DNA of 63,709 bases, filler included, from Kipferlia bialata (lineage: Eukaryota): the NCBI GenBank assembly GCA_003568945.1. It is 7 parts of 5 records of this genome, joined end to end, with 100 filler letters (N's around TTAATTAATTAA, not from the genome) between each part and the next. Parts side by side here need not be neighbours in the genome. Positions count along the whole stretch, not along the records: positions 44,840 to 51,496 come from BDIP01000055.1; positions 51,597 to 62,414 come from BDIP01000058.1; 5 more parts are not named here. One strand, given 5' to 3'. Below, one piece after another: positions 14,418 through 62,522 of this stretch (positions are counted from its first letter, which is position 1; each line of letters opens with the position of its first letter). A program made the position numbers and the translations under genes. Below the pieces are notes generated by a model, which saw nothing but the letters and a program-made list of their open reading frames with translations, did not search any database and had not been told where the DNA came from.

Positions 14418-14517
14418 NNNNNNNNNNNNNNNNNNNNNNNNNNNNNNNNNNNNNNNNNNNNTTAATTAATTAANNNNNNNNNNNNNNNNNNNNNNNNNNN
14501 NNNNNNNNNNNNNNNNN
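14418..14517. other. Artificial assembly gap linker N44-TTAATTAATTAA-N44
   Basis: Exactly 100 nt with a six-frame stop core; identical at all six gaps. Confidence 0.97.
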
Positions 14518-14545
14518 CTGTGTCCTTTGGTGACACCACCGACAT

Positions 14546-14583
<38 letters not shown>

Positions 14584-14596
14584 CCTTAACTGTCAG

Positions 14597-15652: not shown

Positions 15653-15688
<36 letters not shown>

Positions 15689-17663: not shown

Positions 17664-17694
<31 letters not shown>

Positions 17695-19810: not shown

Positions 19811-20802
19811 ATGCAGCCGAACCAGAGTAGCTATGCCGTCGGAGGGAGCCGCGGCCCCACGCCCAACCCAGGCCAGCCCCTGCTCCCTGACCCTGCCTCC
19901 CCATTAGAGGTAGGGGTGCCCCTGGAGCAGACACCGCTAGGTAGGGAGTGTGTGCATATACATACACACAGCACTGGTTGCATCACTCTCGGTGTCAATC
20001 TATAATTACAAAATACATACCGTAACTGATGGTACCGGACACTGCATTCCATATACGTCTACTAGCTGGTGCGTTAGGCAGAGGGAGTGTGTGTAATGGT
20101 TATTTATATACCTCTTGTTGTTGCCTTATACTTCTTTCCCATTTGCGCCCACCCTTCATATTTCTCAGTACCCACTCAATCACAGCAGTGCATCACACAT
20201 CATCCTCCCGACTAGCTCTCTCACTCTTGCATACCATTCAGCCGTTCAACTCTCTACCGTTTTGCCCCAGTGGCCTATCTTCCTCTCTCTCTCTCTCTTC
20301 ATCCCATTCTTCATGATGCCTTATAGGTTACTCATTCCGTGGTATATCTCTCCGTATGTCTCGATACATCTGCCTCTAGAAGCCCATGCATTAACCCCAT
20401 CCTGACATATGCTTGATCTCTCTCTCTGTGTAAGTATGAGTGCACTCCATAGGATATATCTAAATCCCCCTGACCCCCAGGCATGCTGGACCCCATGAGG
20501 CTGAGTGCATCACCCGGCATGCAGTACCCAATGGGTGAGTGGTGGATAGGATATATATATGATGTGTCATTAGGACCCAGTCCTCCACCTCCTTGTATTG
20601 CTCACAGTCTCTCACATACACCCCATGCCCCTTACCATCTCTATGTCTCTGTCTCTCTCTCTCTCCTAACCCCCAGGCATGTCCCTTGACCTCTGGGACC
20701 ACTCCATGCAGGGGTCACACTCACTCCCTCCCATGCAGGCACAGGTATATATATATTCCGTACAGTATATACTGTTATTCTCCTCTCTCATTCTTTCTGC
20801 TC

Positions 20803-20849
<47 letters not shown>

Positions 20850-23800: not shown

Positions 23801-24435
23801 GAGAGGGAACACCCCTCAAGCGCATGGTGCAGCTAGTCAGGCAGCGCACCCCAGGCTACATGGCAGGGGGATCCCCCTCAGACACCCAGTCCGACACGTC
23901 CTCAGACGCATCGAGTGAGGGGGGGCAGGACACAGACGTGGAGGGTGTGCCCTTCAGAGTCCTCATCAGAATGGCGGCCAGGGCTATGTTCCAAGTCTGC
24001 ATGGTGAGTGGTTGTGATACTCTGTTCTCATCACCACCTATGGATGTCATTCTCACCCTCCAGCTTGAGTTTGTGCCAGACTATGGCAAGAACGTGTTTG
24101 TGGCCTTCTCCTGGATAGCCAAGATCCAGCAGAACCACGCCTCGTACTATGTCCTGGGCCACATCCAGGGGGTGGTCCTGCTGGCACTGCACGTCTACAT
24201 AGGGCTCCCATGGGTCAGGTGAGGGGTGTCACATACATACCATCAGTGCACCAATCCCTATCATTGTTTGTGACATTGTATCTCACCCCAGCGCTCCTTG
24301 GTCTCCTGAGGACGCTCTCCCCATATCCATTGCTAACAGGATCATCCTCTTTGTGCTCCTCCTGGTGTCACTGGTACGACCTCCATCTTATGTATCATAT
24401 CCCTGCTACTCTCAGCTGGTTCGTATATATCGATG

Positions 24436-24469
<34 letters not shown>

Positions 24470-27453
24470 CACCCCAGGTCCGCATCCCCTTCATGAGGTT
24501 CACCAGAGACATTGGGGGTGCTGCTGTGGGGTTGATGCTGTCTAAGCAGCTTGATCAGGCCACTTTCTCTACTGATGGCGCTGTGGATGCCGGGCAGGGT
24601 GTGTTGCAGAGTGAGGGGTCTGGGTGTGAGGGGTCAGATGCCTCGGCGGGGTCTGCCTCCTCTGACACTGACTCTGGACACGACAACAGGGCCTACTATG
24701 CAGACCCCTTCAAGGTGGGTGTCCTCCCATCCTGACACATGGTCCAGTGCTGGTGTAGTATACTCTCTGTTACTAATTTCTATGTGTGCTATACTCTCTT
24801 CCGTGGTTCTCCATCAGTCACCATCTCACCCCAGATCACCAAGATGGGCTACCGCATGATGATGGGCGCCGTGGTGACAATGCATGTACGTGTGTGTGGT
24901 ATCTCTAGATATCTCAGCCATTCCAACTCTATATATGTATTACCATACCCCTTGCCCCTTACCCTCAGTGGGCCATGTTCCTCGGTCTGTGTGCCGTCGT
25001 TGTGGTATGTGCCAGCGGCATGACCTCCCACCCAGACCTCACCCTCACTCAGCAGAGCACCTGCAACAACGTGATGTGGGTACGTATTCTGCGAGTGTGC
25101 GCTATTCTTATCGCCACCCCCTCTCACCCTCAGGTTGCTGTGCTGCTACTGCTGCTAGACATGTACACCGCCTACCTCTTTGCCGTGCCCCACCGTGCCT
25201 CCATCCTCCTAGTGGCCATGTGTCTGTGCATGGTACCCCTCGGGTCTGTGGCTGTCAGGGCCAACCAGCAGCTGGGGGCCCTGGTCTACATGCTATGCCT
25301 CGTGGCTGCCCTGGGGGTACTGCAGTCAGTCCTGCAGGTGGGTGAACTGCTCTCTCTCCCTCCTCTCTCCTGTCCATACTCTATAATAGTGATATCTACC
25401 ACCAGGTCGTGTCCCGGGTGCTGGGGACCAGCTTCATGGTGGAGACAGGTGAGGAAGGGCCACTCCCCTCTTTCTTTGTTGCATCAACTTCACCATACAC
25501 CACTTCCTCTCATATTTGTATTTATGGAGCCATTTCCCCCTTACCCTCAGCTGCCACCAAGGTCCTAGTCTCCAGAGTGGCCTCAGGGCGGTTCTTCAAC
25601 AGGTAGTGTGTGTACATACTCACATGCTAGTTTTGTGTGTCTTGTCAACAGTCTGCATGTGCCATCCACTCACCCCAGTGTGCTTGTGTCCAGTATGGGC
25701 CCTGTCTTCCTCAGGTCCTTTGCCTCCATCACAATGTCCCCAGACCAGTCGGCAAAGCTGCTCAGGTATCTCTCTCTCCAACTATCTCTCCGTATCTCTC
25801 ACTGTTTCTATATGGTTGCAAATATATTCTATGCCGCCCCCCACCCCCAGTGAGCTCCAAGTGAGACAGATCACCCAGGGCCTGGATGGGTGTGTGATGC
25901 TCCCCTTCCTACTCAACCCAGACGGGAACGGGGAGGGGGAGTACACTACCTCCCTGGCTGTACAGCCCACCCACACCGGGAGGGGTAGGGTCAGGAAGAA
26001 GACCCCCACAAGGCTCCACTTCTCTAGGGGAGAGACCAGGAGCCATCGTGTCTTCAAGAGGGTTACCGACGCTCTGTTCCGGTATGGCCACCCGTCTGCC
26101 CCCCCTCTGCCCTGGTCTGCTACCATGGAGATGGAGGGGGCGAGTGAGAGCGAGGGGGAGAGCGGCAGTGAGGGTGCTGCTGATGCTGATGCTGGGACAC
26201 CGGAGAAGAGGGTGACTGTAGAGGGTGCCCCCATAGCCGACACCCTCCCTGACTGTATGTGTGCCACTGATGCACAGGACACTGATGCTGATGCAGAGGA
26301 GTGCGTGACTGAGACACCCCCCGCTGACACCCACCCCCTGGCCATAGCAGCCCCCTGCCTCGACATACAGTATGCCAGTGAGGCCGAGCAGGCTCTGATG
26401 CAGGACGCAGACATCGAGTTCTACCCCCTGTGTGTCTACACAAAGCTGGACATAGCCGGCTTCACCGCATACTGTGCCAGACACGGCTCAGACGTCGTCA
26501 TGCTCCTCAACATCATGTGCGTGATAGTGTATTTACCTACCAGTATATATGGGTGTGAGGATGTGCGTGTGTAGATATATGTATGGGCCCTGTCCTACTC
26601 CTGCCCTGCTCACCCCAGGTTCACTGCCTTTGACAAGGTTGTGGACAAGTACGCTGTGTCAGGCGTGGTCAAGGTCAAGACGGTCGGGGACGCATACGAG
26701 CTGATGCGGCCCTTCACCTCAGAGGAGCTGCGGCACTCCAGCCTAGCAGACATCCAGAGTGCTGTGGCTGCAGTGACTAAGGTATGTTTAGATGTCTGAC
26801 ACCCTTACCTACACCCTCTCACAACCCTCACCCTCCAGGCCAGCCAGCAGCTGCTCCATGCCGCCCAGTCGGTGTTCCAGTCCATGGGAGTGTCCCTCAG
26901 CGTGCGGTGCGGAGTGGGCATGGTACGTATTTACCCAGCGATGCTATTATTGCAACTACCCTCTGTATGCATGTCCTCACCCCAGGGCCCAGCCTTTGCA
27001 GGCGTCCTAGGCTTCCTGCGTGTCTCCTACGACATCTTCGGGGCTGCCCCCTCCAGGGCCAGGGCCATGGAGTTCCTGTCCCCCCTGGGCAGAGTGTCTG
27101 TGTGCAGGCAGGTGCGGTGCCTCCTATCCACCATGTCCAGTGACACAGGCACAGGCACAGGGTGCCCCTTCACATTCGGGGCTGAGGTCAAGGGGGACGG
27201 AGGGGGTGTGGGGGAGACCCTGCGCTCGGTGTCTGTAGACGTACCCTCACCCCTCTCCGACGGAGAGAGAGAGAGAGAGAGACTGCAGGCAGCGGCATTT
27301 GCCAAGGCCCGGCGTGTCTTTGACAGGCTGCACCCTGCATCTCAGAGACCCCAGCCCCAGTGGGATATCGAGGGCGTGCATCTCTTCCACAGAGACACAG
27401 GTGCCCCAGGGGGTGAGAGCGTGGGGTACGTCCTGCTGGCCGTCACAGAGTGA
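19811..27453 (+). CDS. Membrane class III nucleotidyl (probably adenylyl) cyclase with two catalytic domains; continuity across gap 20856-20955 unproven
   Basis: Domain 1 has IDKIKGSDG and CGISSGSVTGGVLGSYELMYDVFGDTVNTAARLMS. A hydrophobic multi-TM block lies at ~24000-25760. Domain 2 has TKLDIAGFT, VKVKTVGDAYELM and YDIFG. Confidence 0.85.
20856..20955. other. Artificial gap linker
   Basis: Same 100-nt structure; preceded by poly-C. Confidence 0.97.
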
Positions 27454-35395: not shown

Positions 35396-37027
35396 ATGTC
35401 TCTCGCTCGTGGCTTTTCCTCCGTTGCCGGAACTGCTCTGAAGAAGGTAACCCAATGTTATCGTCTGGGTGTCTGTGACCCTGCTTGACATGCTCTCCTC
35501 CCATACCCTTTGTCCCTCATACTCACCTAAGACCCCCCTCTGGAATCTCCACAATGAGTCTGGTGGAGACATGGTCTCCTTCGGTGGCTGGAGCCTGCCC
35601 GTGAAGGTATGATGAGTTTGATCATCATCCTCTCTCACATTGTCGAAGATAGTCATTCGAGATATGTATATCTCTGGTTCATTCCCTGCTCCTTACCCCA
35701 GTACCGCACTGGCATCATCGAGTCCCACGCCCAGTGCCGTGAGACCGGCGGTCTCTTTGACGTGTCCCACATGACCCAGCTCATGTTCACAGGTTAGACA
35801 CATCCTGTCAATCCACCCATTTCCGTTCTCTATCAATTCACACTACTCCATTCTGCGTATCACAATGGCGTTGATTCTAACCTAGGTGCCGACAGGGAGC
35901 TCTTCCTGGAGACCATCACCCCTGCCGACATCCAGGGTCTCAAGGAGCGCCAGATGCGCCTGTCCTCCTACCTGACCCCCGATGGAGGCATCATCGATGA
36001 CCTCATGGTGGTCAGACACTCCGCCAAGGTACGCGGGTAGAGTGATTGCCTCAATATGGGTGTGTGTCCGTGTGTATCCCTTCACCCCCCCCCCCCATTT
36101 CTCCCCCTTATTGTTGACCTGTCAGGACCAGGTGTTCCTCATCTCCAATGCCGCCACCAAGGAGAACGACGTCAAGCACCTCAACGACATGCTGCAGAAG
36201 TACTCCCACATGGACGTCCAGATCGAGGACCTCTCCTTTGCCCGTGCCCTCATTGCCGTGCAGGGCCCCGGGGTCAAGGCCGCCATGCAGCGCCTGCTCG
36301 ACTACGACTTCACCGCCCAGCCCTTCATGTCCCAGTTCTTTGGCTCCATCGAGGGCATTGATGTGTGGGTGGCCAGGTCTGGGTACACCGGCATGGACGG
36401 AGTCGAGATCAGCGTCGACGCCAAGGACGGAGAGAGGCTGGCCCGCATTCTGCTTGCCCAGCCCGAGATTGAGGCAGCTGGCCTTGGCCCCAGGGACTCG
36501 CTGAGGATGGAGGGCGGTCTCTGCCTCTACGGGTCCGACATCGACACCACCACCAACCCCATCGAGGTATGTGCAAATACATATGTATATGTGTGACTGC
36601 ATTTCATTCAATGGTGAAATACCATTTACTTAACCCCCTTTCCCCCTTCTGACCCCAGGCCGGCCTCTCCTGGACCATCTCCAAGAGGAGGAAGGAGGAG
36701 GGCGGGTACATTGGCGCCGAGGCCGTGAACAAGGTTCTGGAGCAGGGTGTGGTGAGGCGCAGGGTGGGACTTGTCATCGAGAAGGGCGCCCCTGCCCGTG
36801 CCCACTCCAAGATATACGCCGCCGACAAGGAGACCCTCATCGGCCACGTGACCTCTGGCATCTTCTCCCCCACCCTCAAGAAGCCCATCTCCATGGGATA
36901 CGTCAACGTGCCCCACCACAAGAAGGGCACCCAGGTGTTTGTGGAGGTGAGGGGCAAGATGCTGCCCGCCTCGATCAAGGCAATGCCCTTTGTGGAGGCT
37001 GGGTTCTACAGGGGCGGAAGCCTCTAA
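35396..37027 (+). CDS. gcvT: Glycine cleavage system T protein (aminomethyltransferase) with short N-terminal presequence
   Basis: MSLARGFSSVAGTALKK|TPLWNLH...MVSFGGWSLPV, GLFDVSHM, GGIIDDL, ALIAVQGP, ARSGYTGMDGVEI, GLGPRDSLRMEGGLCLYG and VTSGIFSPTLKKPISMGYV; strong C-ending codon bias. Confidence 0.97.
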
Positions 37028-44839: not shown

Positions 44840-44889
44840 ATACACACCCCTATTTATACCCCCCCCCCCCCCCACCCCCCTCACCCCAG

Positions 44890-47800
44890 CACCGCACGCT
44901 GTCCATCCTGCTCCTGTCCTGCCCTGCCCCCAGGCATCCTAGTACATACCCCAGTGCACACACACAGGGACAGACAGAGGGAGAGGGAGAGACAGATGGC
45001 ACTAAGCCCACTGACCTCCCAGCCTCTGGTGCCTCTGGTGCCTCCAGTAACCCTAGTAACCCTGGTGCCCCATCTCCCCCTGTGTCTGTGTCTGACTGTG
45101 CCAACCCCTGCCAACTGGCAGTGTTCTTCCTGCTCCCAGACAACACGCTCAGGTAATGCTGATATATAGTGTATATATATATATTCCTGATACATAACAC
45201 TGAAGTATATACTCCTGCTAACCCTCAGACTGGTGGGTGTCAGACCTGCTGGCCTGGCAGCATGTGGGGTGAGTGCAGGTACAGACAGTGCAGACAGTGC
45301 AGAGGGTGAAGATGGGGCAGATGCCAAGGGTGCAGAGGGTGCTGGTGGTGGAGACCCTGCTGTAGGTGCTGCTGCAGGTGGTGCCGAGGGTGCCCAGCCC
45401 ACCCCCACCCCTGCCTCTGCCTCTGCCTCTGCCACTGAGGGCAAGGGAGGGGACATGGGCATGGTCAGGTATGTACAGACACATAACTGATATATATATA
45501 TATATACATGTATAGTGAGAGTATAGGTCATACATCCATGGATAACCCTCACCCCCCAGGAACCCCTGCTACCACATGCTGAGCACAGTGGTTGTGGAGT
45601 ACCAGCTCACATGGAACCAGGTGGGTACATGGTGTATATTAATGTATGTGTAAATGTATGTATATTGTTAATATCTATACGTGCTGATACCAGCTCACAT
45701 GGAACCAGGTGGGTGTATCAGTATCAGTATATTACGCACACATATGGAATATATTCTATTGTGCACATATACCCATCCCTCACCCCCAGGTTGACTATGT
45801 TGCCTTGCATGACTCCGAGCTCCTCAGGGCCATCAGCCCCTACCTCTCCCACGCTGCATCCCTCACCAAGTGTCTGTTGCTAGACTTCTCCACCCTGGCA
45901 CTGCCCACACACAAGGTACTGATAGTGATACTGATACTACCTACACCCATGGTATATATATATATATATATGATACTGACCCCCCAGGCCAGTGGCACTG
46001 ATACACCCCTGACCCAGGAGCAGCACCTGCTCAGGACACACAGGTGGGGTGTATTATGTATATATATAGTATTATTATATAATATGTGTATTATGTATAT
46101 ATTATGTATATACTGAGGACACTATATCTACCAATCTCTCCATCCATCCACCTCTGACCTGCCAGACAGGGCCTGCAGTGCTTCCTGGACCCCAACCCAA
46201 CGGTGTCCAGGGCTAGGCTCGAGGAGGTGTGTATACTTTAGTATACTTATGTCCATACATATAAGTGTGCGATGGATATTGATATTATATTTCAAATATG
46301 AACTGTGTGATATACCGCCCTGACGAGAGTGTACATATAGAGGTATATAGATCTCTCTGCGCGATTGTATGTGTTGGCCGGACCCTCATGACCCTCTCTC
46401 TCTATATACATATATATATATATATGTGTGTGTGTATGTGTTTATATATATATATATCCCTCTGACCCTCCAGGCCAAGTCCACCATGGACGCTGCATGT
46501 GCACAGGATGTGGATACATACCATGCCATAGTCACAAAGACAGGTATATATATACATATATATACTTGTATATATTTATGTGTGTGTGTATATATATATA
46601 GATACTGTGTGTGTCCTGATATAGTATATATATATACACATATATATAAGATGGACTGTCCCCTGACCCAGGCAAGTACAGCAAGCAGAGCACCCCCCTT
46701 GTGAGACCTATCAAGAGAGAGAGAGAGAGAGAGAGGGCTGGTGACCCCTGCCGCCGACTGAGTCTGGAGGGTCTGATGGCCTCTGCCACCCAGGCCAAGA
46801 GGAGGCCAGACCCATACCTGCCAGACCCACAGCCAAGGTATGGATATGTATGAGTATGTTTGTATATATATATGTACATGGTATATGATACTGATACCTG
46901 CCAGACCCCATGGCAGTGCAGCCAAGGTATGGATGTGTGAATACAAATATTAGTATTATCATCACCATCCCCCTCCTCCTCACCCCCCAGGCTGTATGAC
47001 ACCACCCCCATGCTCCCCCTACTACCCCTGGACATGGCATCTTCTAGGGCACAGCCGGCCCCCCCCACCACCCACAACCCCAACATGGCCCGGTCTGCCT
47101 CCCTCCCCCTATTCCCCTCTGTGAGACCCCTGTCCTCAGCTGTCCAAGGGCTGGGTCTGTCATCATCAGCTGTACAGGGGCTGCAGGGGCTGGTCAGTGC
47201 ACAGGTGGAGGCCGACCACAACCACACCCACAACCCCAACCACAACCCCCCAAGACACAGCATCAGTCCCAGCCCATCAGACGGCATAGCACATGGTGTG
47301 AGGCACATGCCGGGGCAGCCCTTACAGGGTGTGCAGCCCCTGTTCCCGTCTGAGACTGTGCCACACATGCAGAGTCAGGGGGTGTCTGGTGGACCCACTG
47401 TGCAGGGCACGTCCTGTCTCGACCCATCAAGACACAACCCTGCTCTGTCGATGCACCCCGTGGTGCCAGTCTGCATCAGTGCGGTCACAAACACTAACAC
47501 TAGTACTAACAGTGGTACTACTACTACTGGGAGTGGCACTAGTGGGAGTGACAGTGGCAAGGTGACTGTGTCCAGCACTGCTGCCAGGATAGACGACATC
47601 TTCAACGGGTCCATCACGAGACTGGGTAGTAGGGCCAGTGCACTTGGGGCCAGGGCGGCACCCATGAGTGCCATCACTACACCCTCCACACCCCCTCCCC
47701 CTGTCAACAGCCTGGCCTGGTGGGTGTCGTATGCTGAGGACATGCCCAGCCTGGGTGTGAGGGTGAGGGGGTACCACAGGCTGCAGTCACTGCTCACGGC

Positions 47801-48102
47801 ATGCCCAAAGGTGTATGAGGTGGGGACGTGTATTGGTATATATGTATATGTATGGGTGTGTATGTCTATAGTGTGGTACTTACCCCCTCCCCTCACCCGC
47901 GCAGGCCTCCAGGGTGTTCAAGGACGACAATGAGTGTGTATATAGTATATGTACTTGTATACTCTCTCTATATATATAGTATATATAGTATATATAGTAT
48001 ATATATAGTATCCTACCCCAGGCCTCCAGGGTCTTCAAGGACGACAATGAGTTTGGCTACATGGCCCAGTACAACGGAGACATGCTGGGGATGTGCCACG
48101 AC

Positions 48103-48105
<3 letters not shown>
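44890..48105 (+). CDS. Hypothetical multi-exon protein, 5' incomplete
   Basis: Canonical splice sites; last exon ASRVFKDDNEFGYMAQYNGDMLGMCHD* with TAA at 48103-48105. Confidence 0.65.
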
Positions 48106-48146
<41 letters not shown>

Positions 48147-48865
48147 GAGAGAGAGAGGACGAGACCCTACATACCCTCTTTGCCGGGTTGTGCCTGGTCA
48201 ATTAGGGTATGGCTATGGGTGTTTGTTTATACTGCTACATGTGTCCCCTGGGGTATATGCAGGTGGGTGTCCATCTGACACCCCCCTACCCATGGGATGT
48301 GTGTATGCATGTCTATTGTGTGTCTATTGTGTCTGGGTTGGATGAGGGAGGCTGTGTCGATCTAGTACCATCGAGTACTACTTGTGTCATGAATTGAATT
48401 GAATACGTTCGCCCAACTGTAATACAGTTGGGCTGGGAGAGAGAGAGAGAGGTGAGAGAGGTGAGAGAATGAAGGTTTGCAGCTGTAGTTTGTCGGTTGC
48501 ATTTGTTGTTTCTGGCGCATACATGTGTTTGCACCATTGGCATAAATCATAGTTGTTGGTTGGTGTCAGTTGGTGGTATAATGTGATTTGAGACATTAGT
48601 AATGTTTTGTTCAGCGATATGCTGTGCCGGACTGCTAGACGGAGTACATACTAAGTAGGATCCAAACAGTTTGTATCACTCAAACTCTCCAGAATGGCAG
48701 CATCCATGTTGGATCTATGGGTCATATTTCATGGCAACTACTGAATTGCATCCCTCGAAGCTGCCTGTGAAGCCTTTCAGGCTTTGCTCTCATGATCATT
48801 CTCTCTAACCCATATATTCAACATCATCTGGCATTCGATGTATCATATCTATTAGACCCATTGTG

Positions 48866-51372
48866 TCAGAGGGTATACCCCTCCTCCTCTAGCCGTTCTC
48901 TCTCTCTCTCCCTGGCAATTGCATCCTCCTCGTCATGCATCTGAGGGTGAGAGGATAGAGAGAGAGAATATGGCATGTAGACATATATATATATATATAT
49001 ATATATTTGTATATACATATATATACTATCCTCCTCGTCATGCATCTGAGGGTGAGGGGTATAGAGGCATTATGGCATATATATATAAATATATGTGTGT
49101 GTGTATATGTGTATATATATAGGCATTCCTCCTCGTCATGCATCTGAGAGGGTGAGGGGGTGTAGAGGCAGTATGGCATATATATGAAATGTATATGTGT
49201 GTGTATATGTGTATATATATAAGCATTCCTCCTCGGCATCCATATGGTGGGTGAGGGAGTATACACAAATGGAGAGGGGGGGAGAGAGACTCAGTAGAAA
49301 GGTGGATATTGTCCTCTTCCTCTCTATCTATGCATTTACACACATATCCATAAATCCTGCTCTGGTATCTGTACCAATGCATATACAGACACACATATAT
49401 GTATATACACACATATATATACATGTACATAAACCCACCTCCTGCTCCGGTATCTGTACCAATGCATATACAGACACACATATATGTATATACACACACA
49501 CACACACACATATATATACACATATACATATCCATACCTCCTGCTCTGGTATCTGCACCAGCACCAGCCCCACATTGTCAGGGGCACCAAAGGGGTTCCT
49601 GGGGTGGGGTGTGTACAGTTTGAATATCCAATGGTAGAATGACACCACATATACATTTATGACGGGCCCAAAGAGGTATACGTGGTGAGGAATTATACAA
49701 TCCCAATGAATGCGAGAGTGTTTTTCTAAATTGATAAACGGGTACCTGTCCCTCTCCCCTGTCAGCTGTGTCAGCTCTCCAAAGCACAGGCCCTGCATCT
49801 TGTTGATGGCCTTGAACTGGCCCTGGGGTCAATGTATGTATATATAGAGAGATAATAGACAGACATATACATATATATAGATAGAGAGATATATATATAG
49901 ATATAGATAAACATACATACATATATATATAGATGGGCCTTGAACTGTCCCTGGGGGTCAGTACAGATATCTAATATACATCCCTTCAGCTCTGGGGCCA
50001 TAGAGATAGTTGGATAGATAGGTATAGACAGACAGCCTATGTCTCATACGCATACCTTCAGCTCATACTCTGTGGCCACCGTCGACACTTATACATACTA
50101 TATATACTTATTAATATGTCTAAATATATATCTATATATATTAATGGTCCTTCCCCTACCTTTAGCTCATACTCTGTGGCCACCGTTGATGGGTACGCTG
50201 TGGGTATGTCAAATATCCTGGGTATTGGGTTCTTGAGGGTGTGGATCAGGGACTCCTCAAACTCAGCCCTGGGGGTGGGGGAGAGCACACAAGGAGAATG
50301 GAGAGCATAGTATTGAAATACGTATACTGTATATTATTGTATACTAAATACTGTTGTATAAGGGACTCCTCAAACTCAGCCCTGGGGGTGGGGGGTGGGG
50401 GAGGTATATAGGGAGTGTAGTTAGTATTGTATAATCTATAGTATAACAATTGTAAATCTAATACCAATATATAAGGGACTCCTCAAAAACTCAGCCCTGG
50501 GGGGAGGGGTATGTATACACAAAGAGAATATAAAACTCAGTATACACTATAGAAATACACATTTTACTTTGATTACTATATCACAAATCCAAAAGAGACT
50601 CCTCAAACTGGGGGTGGGGGACATATTGGGAGTATATATGTATAATGTAAGAATATACTCTAATATATCCTCCCTGAACACATCCATTCATGTATCCACA
50701 CGTCTATAAACACCTGAACACTTCAATATACATATATCCATCTATACCCACCTGCATACACCTGGGTGGCCTTCTATATATATGAATGTATATATACATC
50801 CATATATACATATATACCCACCTGAATACATCTGCGTGACATTGGTTGAACTCAGCATCTGTGTCCTGAGGTGGGAGGATGGTTACACATGTATGCTAAT
50901 TATATATGTAATAGATAAATGATACATACATCACCCAGCATCTGTGTCCTGGGGGTAGGTACATGTACATGAAGGTGTGTACTAAGATACAAGGTGTGAT
51001 ATAGACAAGTGTGATACATAAGTGACTCAGCATCGGTGTCCTGGGGTGGGAGGATGGTCATACATAGATATGACATGATAGACATAGATATGACAGATAT
51101 GAATATGATAAATATGGATGGGAGATGCATAGAAGAGTGGCTAGGGGAGGGGTAGGGGGTGTGCACTCTATATAGTATATAGTATATATCGATGAGGACT
51201 ATCTCGGATTGAATACAAATGCCATCGGCATAGAGGCTCAGTCTGTCCCTCAGGCTAGATATATATGTATATATATATATGTATAATACCATACCTCCAT
51301 GTACATATAGTATATATGGTATATATACGATGCCCATACCTCCACCAGTTCAGACAGGACCTCCTCCAGACA
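48866..51372 (-). CDS. Hypothetical multi-exon protein, 5' end in gap
   Basis: Spliced ...AEFEESLIHTLKNPIPRIFDIPTAYPSTVATEYELK|GQFKAINKMQGLCFGELTQLTGERDR|NPFGAPDNVGLVLVQIPEQE|MHDEEDAIARERERERLEEEGYTL*. Confidence 0.65.
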
Positions 51373-51496
51373 CTGGGGGTCAGTATCAGTTAGGATTCAT
51401 ATATATAAAGATATATAGATATATAGATATTACCAAATGATACCTCCTCCAGTCACTTGGGGGGGGGGGGGGGGGGAGGGAAGGAAAAAAACCCCC

Positions 51497-51596
51497 NNNN
51501 NNNNNNNNNNNNNNNNNNNNNNNNNNNNNNNNNNNNNNNNTTAATTAATTAANNNNNNNNNNNNNNNNNNNNNNNNNNNNNNNNNNNNNNNNNNNN
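51497..51596. other. Artificial gap linker
   Basis: Same structure. Confidence 0.97.
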
Positions 51597-51648
<52 letters not shown>

Positions 51649-51670
51649 CATTATTTATTCCTGACCTAAG

Positions 51671-53165
51671 GCCTCAAGGGCGATGTGGATGAGGTCGCTG
51701 ACCCCTCAGCGGATGATGAGTGGAGTGACTCAGTCAGTGCTGTGTTTGGGGATGATCCAGAGATTGAGGGTCCAGAGGGAGAGAGAGAGAGGGAGGGAGA
51801 GGAGGAGGAGGATGCTGCAGATGCTGAGGAGAGGCTCTTTGTGGAGAGCTCAACCTCTGTCGCTGCACCTGCCACTCTAGACGGTCTAGACGGTCTAGAT
51901 GGGGGTATTTCTACCCCCCTCCCTGGCATGCATGATGTCCCTGTCCACTCTGAGGTTGGACATGCATTGGGGGTCTCATTCTTCAACAGGTATGTCCTCT
52001 TGCCAATCCATATCCGTCTCTCTCTCTCTCCTTATCAGTTATACATGCATTGGGGGTCGCATTCTTCAACAGGTCCTGCTACTTCCCCCCCGCTCTCTCT
52101 CTACATGAGTACCTTGCACCAGCTTCCAGTGACCAGTTCTTATGAATATATATATAAGTCATGGATCCCTCACCCCCAGGGCCCAGCGTGTTCTGAGACT
52201 AGTCGGTGCCTACAGCCCCTTCTTCCCCTTGGATGTATTTGGGGCAGCATTTGACGCATCTGTCGTCATGGTGAATAGGTATTTATGTATAGTGCAGTAT
52301 ATACTCTGTATGCATGTGCCCTCACTCTCCTCTGACGCCAGGATCCTCCCCTCCCTCCTCTCCGCTGTCCCTCCCCTCCCTGTCCAGAACGAGTTGTTGC
52401 ACTACCTGTCCAAGGTGTGCCCCTCTCTCTTCGACTCCTGCCTCTCCCCCTTGGTGGAGAGTGAGCAGGACGGGGACACCCCCTTCTGGATGGGTGCCAT
52501 ACCCCCAGAGTGGCCAAGGGGACCATTCACTAGAGGGTTCGGTCTGCCTATGGTAGAGGAGACACGGGAAGAAGAGGCAGAGTACATTACACCAGAGGTC
52601 CTGCTCATTGCCACGAGGTACATGCCTTCCATACAATATATCAAGAGCAGTATATATATATATATATCTCACCCTACTAGGTATGTCCTGCTTGGTGCGG
52701 CCTCCCTCTCTGCTGTCGGCATAGCATCCTCTGCACCCCTCTCCCCCCCTTGCCAGTTCCCCTCCTACCTGTGCCCCAGCCCCCCTACGGCACTGCCTAG
52801 AGACATACTGGGGGCAGGGCATGATGCATTCGCCCAGTGCATCAAGGATAAGCAGGTATGCATCTCAGCCTCTCACTCACAACTCTTTCACGCCACCCCC
52901 CATCACCCTACACTCTGTGTGTGTGTGTGTGTATGTGTATATACTTACCACCCAGACTGCCATGGACCTCTTTGCCGATGGGTGCATGTCCGCAGAGTAC
53001 GGCCTGGCACTCTCAATGTGAGTAAGTCTCTCTCTCTCTCTCTCTTTATTAGTATGTCTCTTTCTTTCTTCTTCTATCTTTCTCTATTCTTCCTCTCTTA
53101 CCTCTAGGGAGGCCAGGAAGTGGATAGTGCACGCATGTACCATAGAGGCTGGCCGGAAGCTGTGA
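51671..53165 (+). CDS. Hypothetical protein with acidic region, 5' incomplete
   Basis: In-frame exons ending ...ALSM|EARKWIVHACTIEAGRKL*. Confidence 0.65.
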
Positions 53166-53459
53166 CCTATCCACGGTGCCATATTCACTAGGGTCAACTA
53201 ATGACCTATAATGTACGTATCTGTCTGTTTCATGAGGCATGATACTGTGGCTTATCCACTGTATTCCTTTAGCACGCTTGCATTTGTACAATAGACGTTG
53301 TTGTTTCATGGAAGTATCATATGGTCTGTATTGAAACACACTAAGACTGTGTATTCATGTAATAGTATCCACAATCCAGTTCATCTATTAAACATATATA
53401 TTAAGCGGAGATACCCTGTTACACCACAGAAGTCTCAAACACACTGAAACACCCCATAC

Positions 53460-53497
<38 letters not shown>

Positions 53498-55000
53498 CTA
53501 CTGAGAGAGTACCCCCTGCTGGGTCAAGACCTGGGGTGCCACAACAACTCCCTCAGCACCTACTGTCTCGCCCTCTCCCTCTGCAGTCTCTCTCTCTCCC
53601 TCACCCTGGGGGTCACCGTTGACGTCATCAGAGTACACCTCGGGGGTGTCAGCCACCATGGCGGAGATCTGGAAGTGAGATACATCGACATGTATAAGAA
53701 TTACCGAATGTATTTATATAGATATAGTGCATAGATTAATCCCACCTGAGTGGCGTTGACTGCCTCCAGCTTGAGCATCCGACGCAAGTATATACACACG
53801 CATATAAATATAGATACATATACATACAGTATCTAGGTACCATTCCCACCTGTGTGGCGTTGACTGCCTCCTGCTTGAGCATCCGACGCAAGTATATACA
53901 CAAACACATATATATTACATATGGTATTATTCCTTACCTGTGTGGCGTTGACTGCCTCCTGCTTGAGCATCTGGACACTGGCCGAGGTGTGTCTGTGGGC
54001 ATCCACAGCCTGTCTGGCCTCAGAGGCAAGGGTGGCTGGGGTGAGAGATATGGTAGGTGAATACGAACAGAAGGAGACTGACTAGGATATTCTGATACTA
54101 TAGACGAGTGAGAATCAGAGGCAAGGGTGGCTGGGGTGAGAGAGAGAAGAGTAAGAGATAGTAGGTGAAGGAACAGAAGGAACAGAAGGAGAGTGACTGG
54201 GTCAGACTCAACTAGATAGAGAGAGTGACAAAAGGAGAGGGGGGGGGGGGGGGGGGGCCCCCCCCCCGGGGGGGGGGGGGGGGGGGGGGGCGGGGGGGGG
54301 GGGGGGGGGGGGGGGGGGGTTGCGAGTGTAAAACACTCAATTACTGCTGTCTCAACTTCAGAAGTCAATATTTGAGCACCATGAGAGTATTCATACATGT
54401 ATATATCCGTATCCGTGCATGCCCTACCCTAGAGAGTGCCACCACTTCCTGCCTGTCAAGGGGGGCGACAGTGAGGACAGGGGTCTCTGGGGTGAGTGGC
54501 AAGAAGAGAGTATACAGACGTGACTCACGAGTTATAGACACATGCATTCAGAGACTAGTGAGTGTAATACCCATATCCCATACCTTCTGGCAGCAGAGCA
54601 GTCACTGAACCACGGAGAACAGGGGGGATGCCTGGTGGTTAGAGAGAAGAGAAGGACCAACAGAGAGACAATGAACATATGGCACCCTCCTCCGAACACT
54701 GAGGACGTGAATGCACACACATAACCTAAGCCCCAATAGACACCCACCTGCCAGCAGTGATGTTGCAGCGTATGGCTTCGGCTGTGCTATGGTGACCCTG
54801 TTCACAAAGGAGAGTCGGGCGGCAGCCAGTGTCTTGGCATACAGCCCCAGCTCACTGACCCACAGACCCTCGAAGGTGTCTACATAGCGCTCCACGGCAC
54901 TGATGAGCCGGGGTGGGTCGTATCTAGTAGACCTAGACACAAAGGCATCCAGCACACCACTCAGAGGGAAGGCAACACCGCCTGGGCTCCCACTGGACAT
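53498..55000 (-). CDS. Hypothetical protein (phase conflict across the poly-G/C intron)
   Basis: MSSGSPGGVAFPL...; 3' exons TLASEARQAVDAHRHTSASVQMLKQEAVNATQ|ISAMVADTPEVYSDD...LSQ*. Confidence 0.55.
54238..54319. repeat. Long poly-G/poly-C/poly-G homopolymer tract in an intron
   Basis: Directly visible in the sequence. Confidence 0.9.
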
Positions 55001-55206
55001 AGGTTGGCAGTCCTTGCCACTAGAGCTCAGGAACAAGGGGTCCCAGAGGCTGTCTCTGCGGCCTGGTCACTTGGTCGCAGGCTAGGGGAGACGGGTATGG
55101 GCCTCTTTAGAGAGAGTGAAGACAGAGCACAAACAGGATCTGAGATTCTTGAAAAAGAGAGAAGAGAATTCTCAGACTTTTGAGTCTGCTCTCTTCTTCA
55201 ACCAAA

Positions 55207-56147
55207 ATGCAGAGGTACGGTTGCTGAGACATATTTATGGACAGGATAGCTGCATACGGTTGCATAGTGGCTCTAGTAGTGAAACTATTCCTGTGTATTG
55301 TGTTCCCTTGTGCGTGGTTGTGCATCTCTTTGGTGTTTTTCCTCTTTTCCCGCTGATTTCAGGTGTACTAAGGTTATCCCACCTCACAAGAGGGCCGTGG
55401 ACCCCACCAAGCCCAAGCCTAAGGCTCGTAAGTCCACCCGCGGAGGCCCCCCCTCTGCTGGTGCCTTTGCCAAGAGGAAGTCACCACCTAGTGATTTCCG
55501 TCGTTACTACGACAGGTTAGTTGAGTTATTTACGTTATGGACCCTGTATGATGAATAATGATATTGTGTCATTGGTGGAGGGTAGTGTTGAGGCTGTATT
55601 AGGTTCCAACACTCCTATAATTCCTGGTATACACGAAGTATTTGCAATGTACCCTCTGCAGTTTCATACGTATTCCCTTCCATGGTACGTGAACCCTCCC
55701 AGAGTGTGTGTCTCTCTCTATTTCTCATGATAAGGGAGACCTCCCCATTGCTGTGGAGCACACAACCCCTCTCTCTCCCCCCCACCTCTCTCTCTATATA
55801 TATCTTACCCTAGAGGTGACCTCCCCATTGCCGTGGAGCACACTGCCGGTGGCAACAGGGTGCTGTGGAAGGTGGAGATTGAGAAGCTGGACTTCCACCA
55901 CTACCTCCCAATCTTCTTCGACGGCCTCAGGTTTGTATGTGTGTGTTCGTATACAATATATATCTTACGTATCATGTCTATCCCCCCCCCCCCTTCTATA
56001 TATACAGACATATACCTAGGATTCTCCTTCCCGTCATGTATTATCCCTCTCCCCTCTCGCTACCTACCGTCTCTCTACTTACCCTCTCTCTACCAATATG
56101 TGTCTCATACTAGGGAGCAGGGCCACCCCTATGCCTTCCTCTCACGT

Positions 56148-56193
<46 letters not shown>

Positions 56194-57055
56194 CCCCTAG
56201 GGAGCAGGGCCACCCCTATGCCTTCCTGGCCAGGGAGGGTACCATCAACATGCTGGAGCACGGACAGTCCAAGATCCTGCCAGTCGTGCCACAGCTCATC
56301 ATCCCCATCAAGGTATATATCAATTAGTATATATATATTTATATATATGTACATATATACAGTATAGTACATATATGCATTGATAGAGACACAGCTCATC
56401 ATCTCCATCAAGGTATGTATAGTAGAAATATATGTATTTTTTTGTTATTGAGGATCTCATCTTAACTTATATATACACATTGGATTACATATATGTATTG
56501 GTAGAGATACAGCTCATCATCCCCATCAAGGTATAAACTACATACAGTGTATTAACACACACATGCATTGCTTAACTATGTAGTATTTAGTATATAGCAA
56601 ATATATCTCCCTCACACCAGACCGCCCTGAACACCCGTGACCCCGAGATCATCTGCCGCGTGCTGCATGTCCTCCAGCTGCTGGTGGTCAGTGGGGAGCT
56701 GGTGGGAGAGGCACTCGTGCCATACTACAGACAGGTGGGTGTAAATAGATGTATATCTACTCTGTATCAGTGTAGATCCTGACCCCCCAGATCCTGCCTG
56801 TGCTCAACATCTTCATCAACTGCAACAGGAACATTGGAGACAGCATCGACTTCAGGCAGAAGAAGAGAAACTGCCTAGGTATAAACATGTATTCATACAC
56901 AGTCCTTTATACGTCGGGTATACCCTATACTATACACTAACATCCCAGGCGACCTCATCCACGAGACCCTCGAGCTGCTGGAGAGGCATGGTGGCCCCGA
57001 CGCCTTCATCAACCTCAAGTACCTGATCCCATCCTGGACCAGTGCAGTGCTATAA
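55207..57055 (+). CDS. PACRG: Parkin co-regulated gene protein (axonemal inner-junction protein)
   Basis: [84 protein letters not shown] and [14 protein letters not shown]. Confidence 0.97.
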
Positions 57056-57370
57056 GCACTGTGTGTATTGTAGGGAGAGCATAGATAGACTGACGGTGTA
57101 CAATAGATAGACATTCAAGTAATGGCGTAGAGGGTGAGATCGATTGAGTACCTGATCCCATCCTGGACCAGTGCAGTGCTGTAGAGGCCATATATACTAG
57201 TCCCCTAGTGGTATAGGGCGGTGTAACAGCAATAGATAGACATTCAAGAAATAGCCATGGAGGTGTGAGTTCGCTTGCAGACCACAATAGATTGACATTT
57301 GATTGTAACTGCTTTCAAAGGGACTCTCATTTAGAAACCAACAGAAGATATTTGAGGTATTTAGTTGGTC

Positions 57371-60300
57371 CTATCGCCGCCCCTGTGACCTCTTGACCGA
57401 GGGCGACCCTCTCTCCCTGTCTCTCTCCCTCTCCCTGAGTCTCTTTGCAGCCTGGGTCGGTCTGGCCAACTCTTCAAAGGGGTCGGGGGAGGCATCCCCT
57501 ACCTGGTGTTAATACATATATCTTTAAGTATCAGTATATATACTGATACTGATAGAGTATATACTGATACTAAGGTACTCTTCAAAGGGGTCGGGGGAGG
57601 CATCCCCAACCTGGTATAAGTATAGATAAAAGTATTAGTGAATAAACTGTACTGAGACATCCTCTGCCTGCGTATATCAGTATCAATATGATAAGTTGAA
57701 TTAGTATGAATCCACTGACGTAATGGCTTTGATATGTGTATGCGATGCACCCTGTACCTGTGTGGCCGTGGGTCCAGGGCGTGCAGTCTTGGTGACTGTG
57801 TGGGGGGTGGGCTGGGACTTGGCCTGCTTGGCCTTCTGGGGGGTCAGGGATAGAGGCATATAAATATATATATATATATATACATAGAGAGAGAGAGAGA
57901 GAGAGAGAGGAAGGGGACTTGGCCTGCTTGGCCTTCTGGGGGTCAGTTGGGATTGGGAAATAGATGTATATATGTGTACAGAGAAAGAGAGGATGATATA
58001 TAACTCTATAGAAATAGAGAGAGGAAGAGTACTTGACCTGCTTGGCCTGCTGTTCGGGTGGTTAGGGGGAAAATTCATAAACTCATGCAATACCATAAAG
58101 GAATAGATCCATAATGCTGATCACAACAATCCCTACCTTGTCCTCCCTGGCCTTTGCACTCTCGTGTGTGGTGTGGAGCTTGGTCACATCGGTGTAGGAG
58201 TCACTGGGGGTCAGGAGGAGGATTGCCCTGCACTGTGCATTGCTGTCACTCATTAGTACACCACTTATATATGCACTACCATATTATATTCTATATCTAC
58301 ATACCGCATTGCCCTGCACTGTGCATTGCACTCGGGTGTGGCCTCGGCACTGCCCTGGGGTGAGACAGGAGGAGGTCACATATCCAATATACAGCTACAT
58401 ACATATATATATACCTTGCACCGGGACTCCGCCAGACTCCCTATGAGAGTGTACATACCAACATATCCCATACGCACACACATATATGTGTATATGTATA
58501 TATATACTATATATGATACAACATATTCTGTACATACCTAGCACGGGCACTCTGCCACGACTGTCTAGAGGAGTGTACACACCCATACATGTATATATGT
58601 ATATATGTATATATACACAATACGTATAAGGGTATTACTATACCTTGCACGGGCACTCTGCCAGACTCCCTATCAATGTGGCCTCTGGCAGGTGTACCTG
58701 ACCCCTGGAAGAGGGGTCGCAGAAGATGGCATGGGACTCAACACCATCCTGGGGTGAGAGAGGGAGATATATATATATATATATATATAAATATGTAACG
58801 TACCCCGAGTGCCTGTTTGACCCTCCTGAGCAGTCTCAGCCTAACAAGCTCAGTCACTGCCTTAGCCCATCCGTCCACACGCCTGGCTGAAGTGTTAGAC
58901 ACCCATACACATGGATACATGATATATGAATATACACACACATATATATACTATTTACATACCTTCCTCCAGAATGTATGCCGCACTCCTGTCCTCTACC
59001 ATGCCGGGAGGGACCACAAGCTGGGGTTAGACAGCAGTTGAATACAATATTCTAAAATAACTTCTGTTATAGTACCTTTGTTTTGTGTATTTCATAATTA
59101 CACTATGTACAAACATACGAGTATACCTTCCCTTGCTGTGTGGCAACCATTGCCTCTGGTATGGAATACATATACATATATGACTACAATGTAATAATAC
59201 TAATACTATCATACAATATGGTATACAAAACATACAATATCTAAGCCTACCTTCCCTAGCTGCGTGGCCAGCATTGCCTCTGGCATGGTGTGGCCATGCT
59301 TGGCCAGGAAGGACCTGGGGGTTAGTGTATATATATACATGGATATATATACATATTGTATAATTTAATATAAATATACAATAGAATACAATGAATGAAT
59401 AGAAGGCTTGGCCAGGAAGGACCTGGGGGTGAATACATACATGGACCCATGCAAATACATATGGATCTTTGGACTGAAACTTCAGGAAGCAGTATGTGCA
59501 GTCTACCCCGAAGAGTCTCTCCCACACTTTCTCTCCCCCCATACCCATTGATATAGTATGTGTTACTGATACCTTATGAAGTAGTATGTGCCGTCTGCCT
59601 CTGCACTGTTGGCAAAGGGAGAGAGTATATATATATATATATATGTATACATATATATATATACATATATATATTCATACCTAATGAAGTAGTATGTCCC
59701 ATCTGCCTCTGCACTGTTGGCAAAGGGAGAGAGAGAGGGGATGTCAAGCTGACAGGGGGACAGGTCGCTGGGGTGAGAGGTATGCACATACATATCACAC
59801 TCACACCTATATATACATATACCCACCTGATGTTCATGCCATACTGGTCTGTCAGGCCAAAGTGCTGCACACTGCCACTGAACCTGGGGGGTGAGGAGGT
59901 AAACACACATACATATATACCTGGGGGGTTGAGGATATGACTGATTGCAAACATGGTTATACATGTATTGACACGAATTGCATGTATATGTGTGACCATA
60001 CCTGGACCTAGCCACCTGCTCTCTCATGTACTCCTGGGCCTGGCTGTACCTAGGGGGTCAGAGGGAGCGAGAGAGATAAGGAGGTAAGATACAGCGCCAC
60101 CTAACAACACTACACACATACAACATTCATATACAACTATGTTTCATATATCACATACATATAGTATATCATATAATACCTCTTATCCACCGATGTGTGC
60201 CCCACCCCGTCTGCCCCCACCCTCTTGTGGGTGAGGTAGTAGGACAGACCGGCAGAGGTCTGGGTGCTGCCTAGGGTTAAGAATAGGAGAGCCCTGTATA

Positions 60301-61264
60301 CTAGAAGTGTAGACTCATTTACTATAGTGAACAATAGAGTCTTATACTACAGGAGTATCAGTATTTGTAGGACAGACCGGTAGAGGTCTGGGTGCTACCA
60401 ACGAGGTTGAGACTAGGAGACTCACTTCAGTGTTGAAATATAGGACCTGTATCATCCAATAGATGGATATAGTGGTGATATACCTACGTCCAGATGCAAG
60501 TTCTCCAGAGACTTGGTCCGATGGAGGTGGGAGATGAGCCTGGGGTCAGGGATAGACACGGTATTCTATCCTCATCATAATGCATATATCGCCTTTCAAC
60601 ACCGTTTACCGTGACTATGCACTATACGCTCTATACCAGAGTGGGCATACCTCTCTACCAGCTTTCCATCACACACCATTATACAATATATACAATACTG
60701 AATCTGAATTACACACTGTACCTCTTGACCAGCTTCCCATCATTCCTGTCCAGTCCCAGACAGTACTTGGACAGAAACTCAGCAGACACACCGACTGGGG
60801 GTCAGAGAGGAATAATGGATATAACACACCCACACATATACATACTCTTGGGGCAAGGGAGGAAGGGTATGTGTGTGAGGGAGTGAGAGAGAGCACCTAA
60901 CGAAATCTACCAGTCTTGACCAGTTGATATGAATACATATACATACTCATATATATGAAAACTATAGCACCTGGCCTAGACCCGTTGACAATGAGGTACC
61001 GCATCAACTTCAGGGCCCTTCTGAGAGGTGAGACAGTTGTGATGTTCTCAAATAATAGAAATGTGTACTCGCACATAAATGTATATGTAAAGAGTGCATG
61101 CATACCCACCTATTGTCTCTGTTCTCCTGCTTCTCCTCCCTGGCCTCCCTGGCCTCTCTCTCTCTCCTCTCTGCCTCTGTCTCCACATGGGGGAGGGCCT
61201 CTGCACCTTCCTCCTCTGCAGGTGCCTCAGGGGCAGGCTGGGGCTTGGGGGCAGGCCTAGGATT

Positions 61265-61296
<32 letters not shown>

Positions 61297-61672
61297 GAAG
61301 ATAGAGAGTGAGACAGACAAAGAGACCAATACAAAGAGGCAGCGCCTGATTTAGGACCTATGGGTGCATGTAAGAGAGAGAGAGAGAGAAAGGGGAAAAG
61401 AGAGTGACCTAGCACGAGGCTTCTTTGGGGCCCGCCTCGGGGGTGAGGGGGGCTGGAAGGACTCACTCTCTGGGGGTGAGTGCACAAGGAGTCATTCTAT
61501 GCTACAGTATAAAGTCCTCTCAAGCCCCTCAGACGTATATACACAAACCCTCTCTCTGGCACCCATACGATAGCGTGGCACCTAATGTATATATGTAGTA
61601 TAGTCAGGTAAACTCACCTCCCTCGGCTGATTCGTACTCCGACTCAGATTCCTCCCTCCGCCTTCTAGCCAT
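57371..61672 (-). CDS. MAGE/NSE3-like winged-helix protein (possible SMC5/6 subunit)
   Basis: Low-complexity N-terminus, then LMRYLIVNGSRPV...LSYYLTHK (WH-A-like), GTYYFIRSFLAKHGHTMPEAMLATQLGKL and AVTELVRLRLLRRVK (WH-B-like). Confidence 0.5.
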
Positions 61673-62007
61673 CTCCTGAATACACTCAAGAGTACTCTCT
61701 CACTCTACTACAGATCACAAGGTCTACTCTGCTGCTCCAGCTACTCAAAAGACCACCTCACTACCGTGACCCTTTTATCGAATAGTCCTCAAAAATTCAA
61801 AAAACATGTCTGAACCCTTTAGTGTCTAGCTTTCAATGTGTCAAATCTTCCCCTTCAGAGTGACTGTGGTACACTTGGGTGTGTAGACAGTCAGTGACTG
61901 GCTGATCACTTTAGAGTGTAGTAGGTAGAGAAGAGAGAAGAAACAGAGGCGAGTTTGGACGGCTGGTGTCTGCCCGGGCGGAAGTGGGTTAGAGCCGCGA
62001 AGATAGC

Positions 62008-62368
62008 ATGGGTGAGACCTTCCTAGACACCGTCTACCTCAGTGCCTTTGGGGTTGATGTGACTCTGTGGGCGATATTGCTGGGTGCACCGATGGTGCTG
62101 GTGCTCTGCTGGGGTGTGGCCAGCATATGGAGTGTGTGGGGGGCAAGGTAGGTGTATCAGTATGGGTAATTGTATACACGGTGGACTTGGGTGGTCCTGC
62201 TTTGATGTGGGATGTATAGGGGCACTATGTGTGAATATTGGTAGATATAGTACGCAGTAGATATTATGAGAGGTGATATTCTGCTATATAGCTCACTTCC
62301 ATACATTGGATAGACGTCAGTGAAGTTTGTCCGTTGGGTCTATTAATACATATAGGGACAGGACAGTA

Positions 62369-62410
<42 letters not shown>

Positions 62411-62522
62411 CCCCNNNNNNNNNNNNNNNNNNNNNNNNNNNNNNNNNNNNNNNNNNNNTTAATTAATTAANNNNNNNNNNNNNNNNNNNNNNNNNNNNNN
62501 NNNNNNNNNNNNNNCCCCCACA

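Follow-up and report, generated by a model that had tools for sequence, protein, structure and literature searches.

The window analysed here is a stretch of 63,709 nucleotides (nt), filler included, from Kipferlia bialata (NCBI GenBank assembly GCA_003568945.1), in which contigs are joined by linkers of N near 14418, 20856, 33368, 44740, 51497 and 62415. The DNA is that of an intron-dense eukaryote; donors are GT, and a branch-point-like motif lies near a CCC[CT]AG acceptor. Beside many of its exons lie what we call echoes, which are copies of 8-53 nt of an exon edge, usually together with the splice site, placed about 100 nt away from the original. The echoes are the non-coding units of short tandem arrays, which lie across a splice site or the end of a gene and have a period of about 100 nt. 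All counts refer to this window only; for the whole genome, 124,912 introns have been annotated.

Eight genes were modelled by coordinates as stop-free chains of exons with canonical splice sites (G1, G2, G3, G4, G5a, G5b, PACRG and G7). Read and RNA evidence covers 51600-56280 (4,681 bases, contigs of four runs), and within these limits the introns of G4, G5a, G5b and PACRG agree with the joints or pieces of RNA contigs; the echoes at 14.5-19.0 kb, 48.9-51.4 kb and 56.4-60.7 kb, which are more diverged, lie outside. The DNA run, X1, may be the source of the window itself and is then not independent, and the runs X2-X4 were taken as RNA by guess (no run is recorded as such), their contigs being spliced at GT-AG. 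The frames of G1, G2 and G3 rest on stop-free exon chains and a wrong-frame control. The G7 model equals residues 817-1268 of the annotated protein P0010 (452/452 matching), and its exon 58644-58748 matches the hypothetical protein KIPB_000503 of K. bialata. In PACRG the Pfam ParcG match falls on another exon than the coding end described below. The donor context is unusually strict, with AG as the last two bases of 55 of the 59 modelled exon ends.

A blind scan for local direct repeats within 450 nt returned 69 of them. When each of 134 exon edges was aligned to the adjacent intron or flank with a score cut-off of 13, we obtained 58 echo matches scoring at least 13, about 0.3 being expected by chance. 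At least one echo was present in 29 of the 59 introns, and 24 of the 58 echoes were identical to the exon over the aligned coding part. The first spacing was 70-129 nt, and the 41 spacings below 140 nt had a median of 97 and were a multiple of three in 12 cases. Each echo carries a single splice site, with none evident by eye at its far edge, and the intron segment past the last echo has an ordinary intron length. Tandem Repeats Finder reports one array only, at 48982-49263. The features that the argument draws on are as follows.

59681-59733, minus strand: real exon end of G7 (model equal to P0010 residues 817-1268)
59569-59625, minus strand: echo of G7 exon end 59681-59733 with GT; 3 silent differences in 53 coding nt (echo states GAC, GGC and ATA, facing exon positions 59701, 59698 and 59683)
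about 59486-59500, minus strand: older, decayed copy of the same exon end
59124-59164, minus strand: echo of exon end 59251-59288; 2 silent and 3 replacement differences
58410-58557, minus strand: two echoes (58534-58557 with AAG>TAG; 58410-58444) of exon end 58644-58673
57914-58052, minus strand: two echoes (57914-57941 and 58031-58052), both of the start of exon 57835 with its acceptor
57018-57139, plus strand: PACRG coding end, stop and 3' flank, the first copy of a 129-nt unit without a splice site
57147-57268, plus strand: echo of the PACRG 3' end
56390-56535, plus strand: two echoes of PACRG exon end 56291-56312 (CCC>TCC at 56404; the second identical)
56110-56140, plus strand: echo of the start of PACRG exon 56201 with its acceptor; RNA contigs skip it
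55735-55763, plus strand: echo of the start of PACRG exon 55814 (silent echo state GCT facing exon position 55832); acceptor decayed, exon allele in RNA contigs
53744-53971, minus strand: three-unit array with real exon end 53938-53971 and echoes 53848-53883 and 53744-53779
52043-52074, plus strand: echo of exon end 51960-51989 (TCA>GCA)
50248-50609, minus strand: four-unit acceptor array at the start of exon 50268 (spacings 113, 228 and 346)
50053-50082, minus strand: echo of exon end 50160-50186
49348-49560, minus strand: exon end 49538-49560 and two echoes, 49437-49461 and 49348-49376
48923-49263, minus strand: young acceptor array, period 100, 83% identity including filler
14518-19012, plus strand: gene G1, 16 exons, 512 stop-free codons, 21 echoes (model by sequence alone)
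45600-48052, plus strand: gene G2, 4 echo matches

Echo territory spans 14.5-19.0 kb and 45.6-60.7 kb and is thus wider than a sequence-only reading of this DNA had marked out. Repeats spaced by 60-140 nt number 2, 15, 0, 0, 17 and 21 in the six large contigs, in which acceptor-like motifs number, in the same order, 37, 20, 45, 14, 20 and 29. The echo-rich contigs (14518-20855, 44840-51496 and 51597-62414) have a GC content of 0.46-0.48 and 1.9-5.1 runs of (TA)4 or longer per kb, whereas the three echo-poor ones have 0.55-0.57 and 0-0.8, respectively. This contrast suggests two genomic compartments.

The sequence-only reading had held that echoes often differ from the real exon at synonymous positions, citing four codon comparisons with 11 silent changes and two counterexamples (AAG>TAG and CCC>TCC), all of which are present in the sequence as written. 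Three of the silent changes (CTG/TTG, TCA/TCG and ACT/ACA) are edge mismatches, that is, first mismatches beyond the aligned block, and a fourth, GGT/GGA, adjoins a decayed acceptor outside the local alignment; none of these four was counted. Edge mismatches were left out because they may not be homologous, being silent in 22/55 cases against 148/503 in non-homologous background (P=0.06). When all 58 echoes were pooled (1,317 aligned coding positions), there were 60 echo/exon differences, 56 of them distinct, with 31 silent and 25 replacement changes (55% silent, confidence interval 41-69%) and 34 of the 56 at third positions. 'Often' therefore holds in the sense of about 55%, not of nearly all.

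Four-fold degenerate sites differed at 24/162 positions and zero-fold sites at 20/663, a ratio of 4.9 (P=0.002 against a ratio of 2) with a bootstrap range over 41 edges of 2.7-9.9. The ratio stayed at 4.35-6.44 when any one gene was dropped, and wrong-frame controls gave 0.83 and 0.50; when the comparison was split by base, only G reached P<0.05 alone. A CpG effect as the source of the silent excess was ruled out, the ratio being 4.4 without CpG sites. Transitions made up 12/25 of the four-fold and 10/20 of the zero-fold changes, and therefore kappa is near 2. At this value the expected share of silent changes is 25% for a frozen exon (P=1e-6) and 40% for a neutral echo whose exon is fully constrained (P=0.015).

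One account of such copies is that each arose by a one-off duplication of about 100 nt that spared splicing, leaving a neutral echo and a fast-evolving TA-rich filler, with the silent excess due to chance or mutational bias. The 25 replacement differences, the stops and the decayed older copies would all follow from it, the density of (TA)4+ runs in the echo-rich contigs is in keeping with it, and the pooled silent test loses significance at high kappa. However, kappa is near 2 by the transition shares, and a null simulation of a neutral echo and a constrained exon, passed through the same detector, gave a ratio of only 1.8-2.2. The observed ratio lies above this neutral ceiling, and therefore, on moderate numbers, the pooled synonymous excess is not the one expected of a neutral echo beside a constrained exon. 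Moreover, a neutral GT should decay as the neighbouring intron positions do, which is not what the splice signals described below show. We consider this explanation quite unlikely. Judged from its codons, the divergence profile between echo and exon is that of two copies that were both coding.

Comparison of echoes with each other gave 8/38 differences at four-fold against 10/179 at zero-fold sites (ratio 3.8, P=0.007 against 1). In arrays with several echoes, the differences common to all echoes were silent in 3/3 cases, and the four-fold site 15630 shows three states across three copies. There was no significant correlation between the divergence of an echo and the similarity of its filler (Spearman -0.17, P=0.26).

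A second and independent line of evidence comes from the splice signals, compared in 22 end echoes that had been picked on coding score alone. Identity to the real site ran from 0.77 to 1.0 across the final ten bases of the exon, was 0.91-0.95 at GT and fell to 0.41-0.64 at +3 to +6, near the level of unrelated donors. Put as counts, the donor GT was changed at 3/44 bases compared with 44/88 at +3..+6 (P=3e-7). A purine stood at +3 in 20/22, and the donor changes kept the consensus better than uniform random changes, a control that ignores base composition. At acceptors the step was weaker, with AG changed at 7/44 bases and positions -12..-3 at 86/220 (P=0.003). Filler similarity exceeded the 95th percentile of unrelated introns in only 8/48 pairs, and filler was only slightly above unrelated introns even beside 18 exon-identical echoes; some arrays share filler ends, and some look like recent expansions with similar filler.

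In the 3' unit of PACRG the blocks of a single ungapped register are identical at 34/34, 2/6, 11/43, 19/19 and 12/20 positions, and CTA TAA stands against CTG TAG, so that Leu and the stop are kept by different codons. The identical 19-nt motif after the stop occurs at 57101-57119 and 57230-57248, with a degraded third copy at 57285 and no closer match elsewhere in the window; it is possibly a 3'-end signal common to the convergent gene G7. In the step at GT and AG and in the PACRG 3' pattern, conservation in the echoes follows what selection would preserve in a working copy. The codon pattern and the identity step need both copies to have been under selection once, which supports the earlier proposal that echoes are former exon edges.

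The arrays are real DNA, and the RNA contigs contain only the copy joined to the rest of the exon. Echo junctions are crossed by DNA contigs with no other letters at a depth of 343-471 across the 4,681 bases (from the run that may be the source of the window), and each junction of the array 53744-53971 is spanned at a depth of 431-467. Echo 52043-52074 lies inside one DNA contig piece without differences, 51827-52903. An artefact in which the two haplotypes of a heterozygous diploid were concatenated in tandem would produce the divergence profile of two alleles, and the assembly is fragmented, with an apparent misjoin near 54240-54320 and with X1 perhaps as the source of the window. Nevertheless, X1 contigs cross the echo junctions without other letters, the filler-only piece 53854-53965 has a depth of 457 compared with 462-471 in exon-rich contigs, no second haplotype was listed at 88% likeness in the 4.7 kb examined, and four-unit arrays are impossible from two haplotypes. 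We regard such an artefact as extremely unlikely.

An RNA contig joint at 51986-52177 skips echo 52043-52074, another at 53668-53938 skips both echoes of the array 53744-53971, and the PACRG pieces 55812-55929 and 56200-56280 carry the exon allele. These echoes are therefore spliced out. In four introns within 51600-56280 the RNA contigs skip the echoes and use the site adjoining the exon (rare use would not be visible), the whole echo-bearing interval being removed as one intron with no new intron between copies. Among the RNA contigs of this region, which drop rare forms, there was no joint at any echo site and no echo allele.

These results bear on whether selection acts on the echoes now, be it on coding segments used in alternative splicing or on intermediates in a recursive-like splicing that proceeds in two steps. 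Their splice signals do look functional, the AG at 55/59 exon ends creates an AG/GT junction at an end echo, and the segment that follows the last echo has the length of an ordinary intron. However, RNA contigs join at the real sites, within the limit on rare forms just given, the spacing keeps frame in only 12/41 cases, the far edge of the echo has no splice site evident by eye, and one echo lies past a stop codon without any splice site; recursive use, in turn, would not constrain codons. Present function is in our view very unlikely. The suggestion that some copies are still translated likewise finds no support in the RNA contigs, which splice across echoes and carry the exon allele (rare forms being dropped), nor in the stops, the 25 replacement changes and the spacing.

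How, then, could two copies diverge as if both were coding? As long as the upstream copy of an exon end persists, its downstream counterpart on that chromosome lineage never codes, and the two therefore cannot both diverge under constraint. In a toy population model with one run per setting, the ratio was 1.1-2.1 in 10/10 settings when conversion acted in cis, whether one-way or two-way with back-conversion being lethal, whereas donors on other chromosomes gave 2.1-5.4 in five settings, one of which reached four-fold and zero-fold differences of 0.147/0.030 against the observed 0.148/0.030. From this logic and the model we infer unequal exchange between homologues. It is likely that the exon-edge core and splice signal of the echoes were recently supplied from functional alleles on other chromosomes. 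The fuller reading, in which arrays straddling a splice site are resupplied from functional alleles by unequal inter-homologue recombination and then decay, has in our judgement an even chance of being right. The earlier idea that array change or conversion swaps which copy is coding is thus retained for exchange between separately evolving chromosomes and abandoned for exchange in cis.

In-cis exchange deserves consideration in its own right. Old tandem duplicates could have been homogenised in patches with the exon through conversion or slippage, in cis or on the sister, while fillers saturated and the echoes never coded after the duplication. Identical blocks beside blocks at random level in one register, as in the PACRG 3' unit and the shared filler ends, speak for it, as do arrays that are recent expansions with similar filler; it also requires no allelic diversity, consistent with the variant-free 4,681 bases. 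It falls short on the simulated ratios, which stayed below the observed 4.9 in all settings, and leaves the exact end of similarity after GT unexplained. We consider it unlikely.

Under the inter-homologue reading, the first duplication would occur when repair synthesis overruns the intron into the exon and is followed by end-joining. The introns would be too diverged to pair, and pairing would therefore take place at the exon-edge cores, the real exon edge of the homologue pairing with the echo. A crossover or conversion could then install at the position of the echo an exon edge that had recently been coding, together with the splice site and filler belonging to it. A captured echo would decay neutrally through replacements, stops and lost GT or AG; if the array contracted, an intact echo would become the coding copy again and be filtered by selection. 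The echoes would be by-products of recombination and not functional elements. Two other sources were rejected: copying templated by mRNA or cDNA, since the echoes keep the intronic GT or AG and continue intron-like rather than into the next exon (cases judged by eye), and triplet stepping of Dmc1 as the origin of the codon pattern, which by our own reasoning has no reading frame.

The K. bialata genome paper describes two k-mer peaks, suggesting a diploid (PMC5874029). According to a survey, non-homologous end-joining (NHEJ) is absent from metamonads, and fornicates have Dmc1 paralogues and no Rad51A (PMC8516963); Dmc1 tolerates mismatches (PMC8682777). Diploidy and an NHEJ-free, Dmc1-based repair make the inter-homologue route plausible; they do not show it.

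Several observations weigh against resupply from homologues. The P value against a neutral echo with a fully constrained exon rises to 0.05-0.13 at kappa 4-10, the echo-versus-echo ratio is indistinguishable from 2 (P=0.14), and differences private to one echo are silent in only 8/19 cases. Cores of 15-35 nt are short for homologous pairing, and the 19/19 block of PACRG could be plain patch conversion. With a divergence of only 15% at four-fold sites but near saturation in the filler and at +3..+6, fillers must be assumed to be much older than the cores or to mutate faster. The simulations that fit had a synonymous diversity of 0.07-0.2, and no allelic variant was listed in the 4,681 bases on four runs, whose contigs hide variants; since the model requires diversity to have been high at some time, either the strain would have to be homozygous here or the contigs conceal the variation. 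RNA contigs of a second sample, perhaps of the same strain, match about 350 nt of PACRG with zero substituted bases. A metagenome scan with PACRG exon 55364-55513 (15/64 parts) found no outgroup, its one distant locus, L001, showing 76% over 21 residues, one weak 19-nt repeat and no echo pattern; nor was a second strain found. More tentatively still, and with a probability clearly short of even, we envisage in parts of the genome a dense, ongoing array system in which exchange between diverged chromosomes moves the units in turn through the coding position and which is a major route of intron lengthening.

Other parts of the window were also inspected. The G/C homopolymer run at 54240-54320 seems to join two different genes and is likely a misjoin: the frame is not continuous from exon 54428 to exon 54035, the DNA contigs stop to the left and right of the run, and the upstream exons belong to an RNA contig of 3,991 nt, far beyond what the window holds. 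At 61672-62414, P0010 has 816 residues before the G7 start that are absent from the window, and an acceptor-like CAG stands three bases before the G7 ATG; the upstream part reflects either a fused gene model or a long upstream intron. The repeated segments of G1 (14597-19351) resemble armadillo repeats. A glycine cleavage system T protein gene with short, echo-free introns occupies 35563-37027, its exon 36126-36566 being a 100% match to that protein of K. bialata. A long multi-exon gene lies at 20956-27450; two of its stretches resemble nucleotide cyclase catalytic domains in their motifs, and the sole piece scanned, of 53 residues, had no Pfam match. The minus strand at 6550-14350 holds one or more multi-exon genes, leucine-rich-repeat-like by eye and almost echo-free.

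No description of exon-edge echoes was found in the literature searched, most subscription papers and supplements lying outside the search. The closest known case is the minisatellite in intron 7 of human F7, where the first 37-bp unit spans the exon-intron boundary, the downstream copies carry silent 5' pseudo-sites and the most upstream donor is used (PMC1557585). The Kipferlia echoes share the head-to-tail unit with an exon edge and splice site (58 echoes, spacing 70-129 nt) and, in the four introns with RNA contigs and with the same limit on rare use, silent pseudo-sites beside a used exon-adjoining site. They differ in that the units are not alike over their whole length, filler being saturated and above background in 8/48 pairs, whereas the F7 pseudo-sites are described as identical and belong to one locus; the Kipferlia units are of about 100 nt, involve donors, acceptors and a gene end in 29/59 introns, and carry codon-aware differences.

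Intron gain by tandem genomic duplication, or by double-strand-break repair with short direct repeats, is described in PMC3443670, and there, too, local duplication copies a splice site and leaves direct repeats at intron edges. However, the Kipferlia introns lengthen, none is new in the RNA-checked cases, and the repeats are of 15-50 nt with both copies seemingly selected. Introners resemble the echoes as intron-associated sequence flanked by direct repeats; PMC9860276 gives them target-site repeats of 3-9 bp and inserts that form families, and does not mention K. bialata. The Kipferlia fillers, in contrast, are weakly like their own neighbour, and no family was seen in the scan of local repeats within 450 nt. 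Intron gain by duplication does not fit the introns checked by RNA. Tandem or mutually exclusive exons differ in that the echoes have one splice site and leave no joint or allele in the RNA contigs, and the AG/GT of recursive sites is present at most end echoes because 55/59 exon ends are AG.

A further relative is concerted evolution in which interlocus gene conversion links a gene to a non-coding copy nearby on the chromosome. The likeness to the echoes lies in patches of identity beside diverged blocks, and donors on other chromosomes can carry allelic silent differences into the copy; the Kipferlia case differs in acting on exon-edge fragments that sit in introns of the gene itself and in having its boundary at the splice dinucleotide.

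In practical terms, gene predictors and read mappers can choose the wrong copy at echoes. When intron DNA follows the codon table more closely than a neutral copy can, this is evidence of two separately selected gene copies brought together. If the inter-homologue reading is right, the echoes would be the trace, within a single genome, of exchange between homologues or by sex in a free-living fornicate, and a measurable consequence of Dmc1-based, NHEJ-free repair. They would also provide a natural test set for how a reduced spliceosome, with 87/174 proteins found (PMC6679479), passes over good splice sites, donors and acceptors alike, at a distance of 100 nt. On the more tentative reading of a cycling array system, each intron there would store fossil alleles of its own exon edges, and one assembly would therefore record both past synonymous diversity and genetic exchange.

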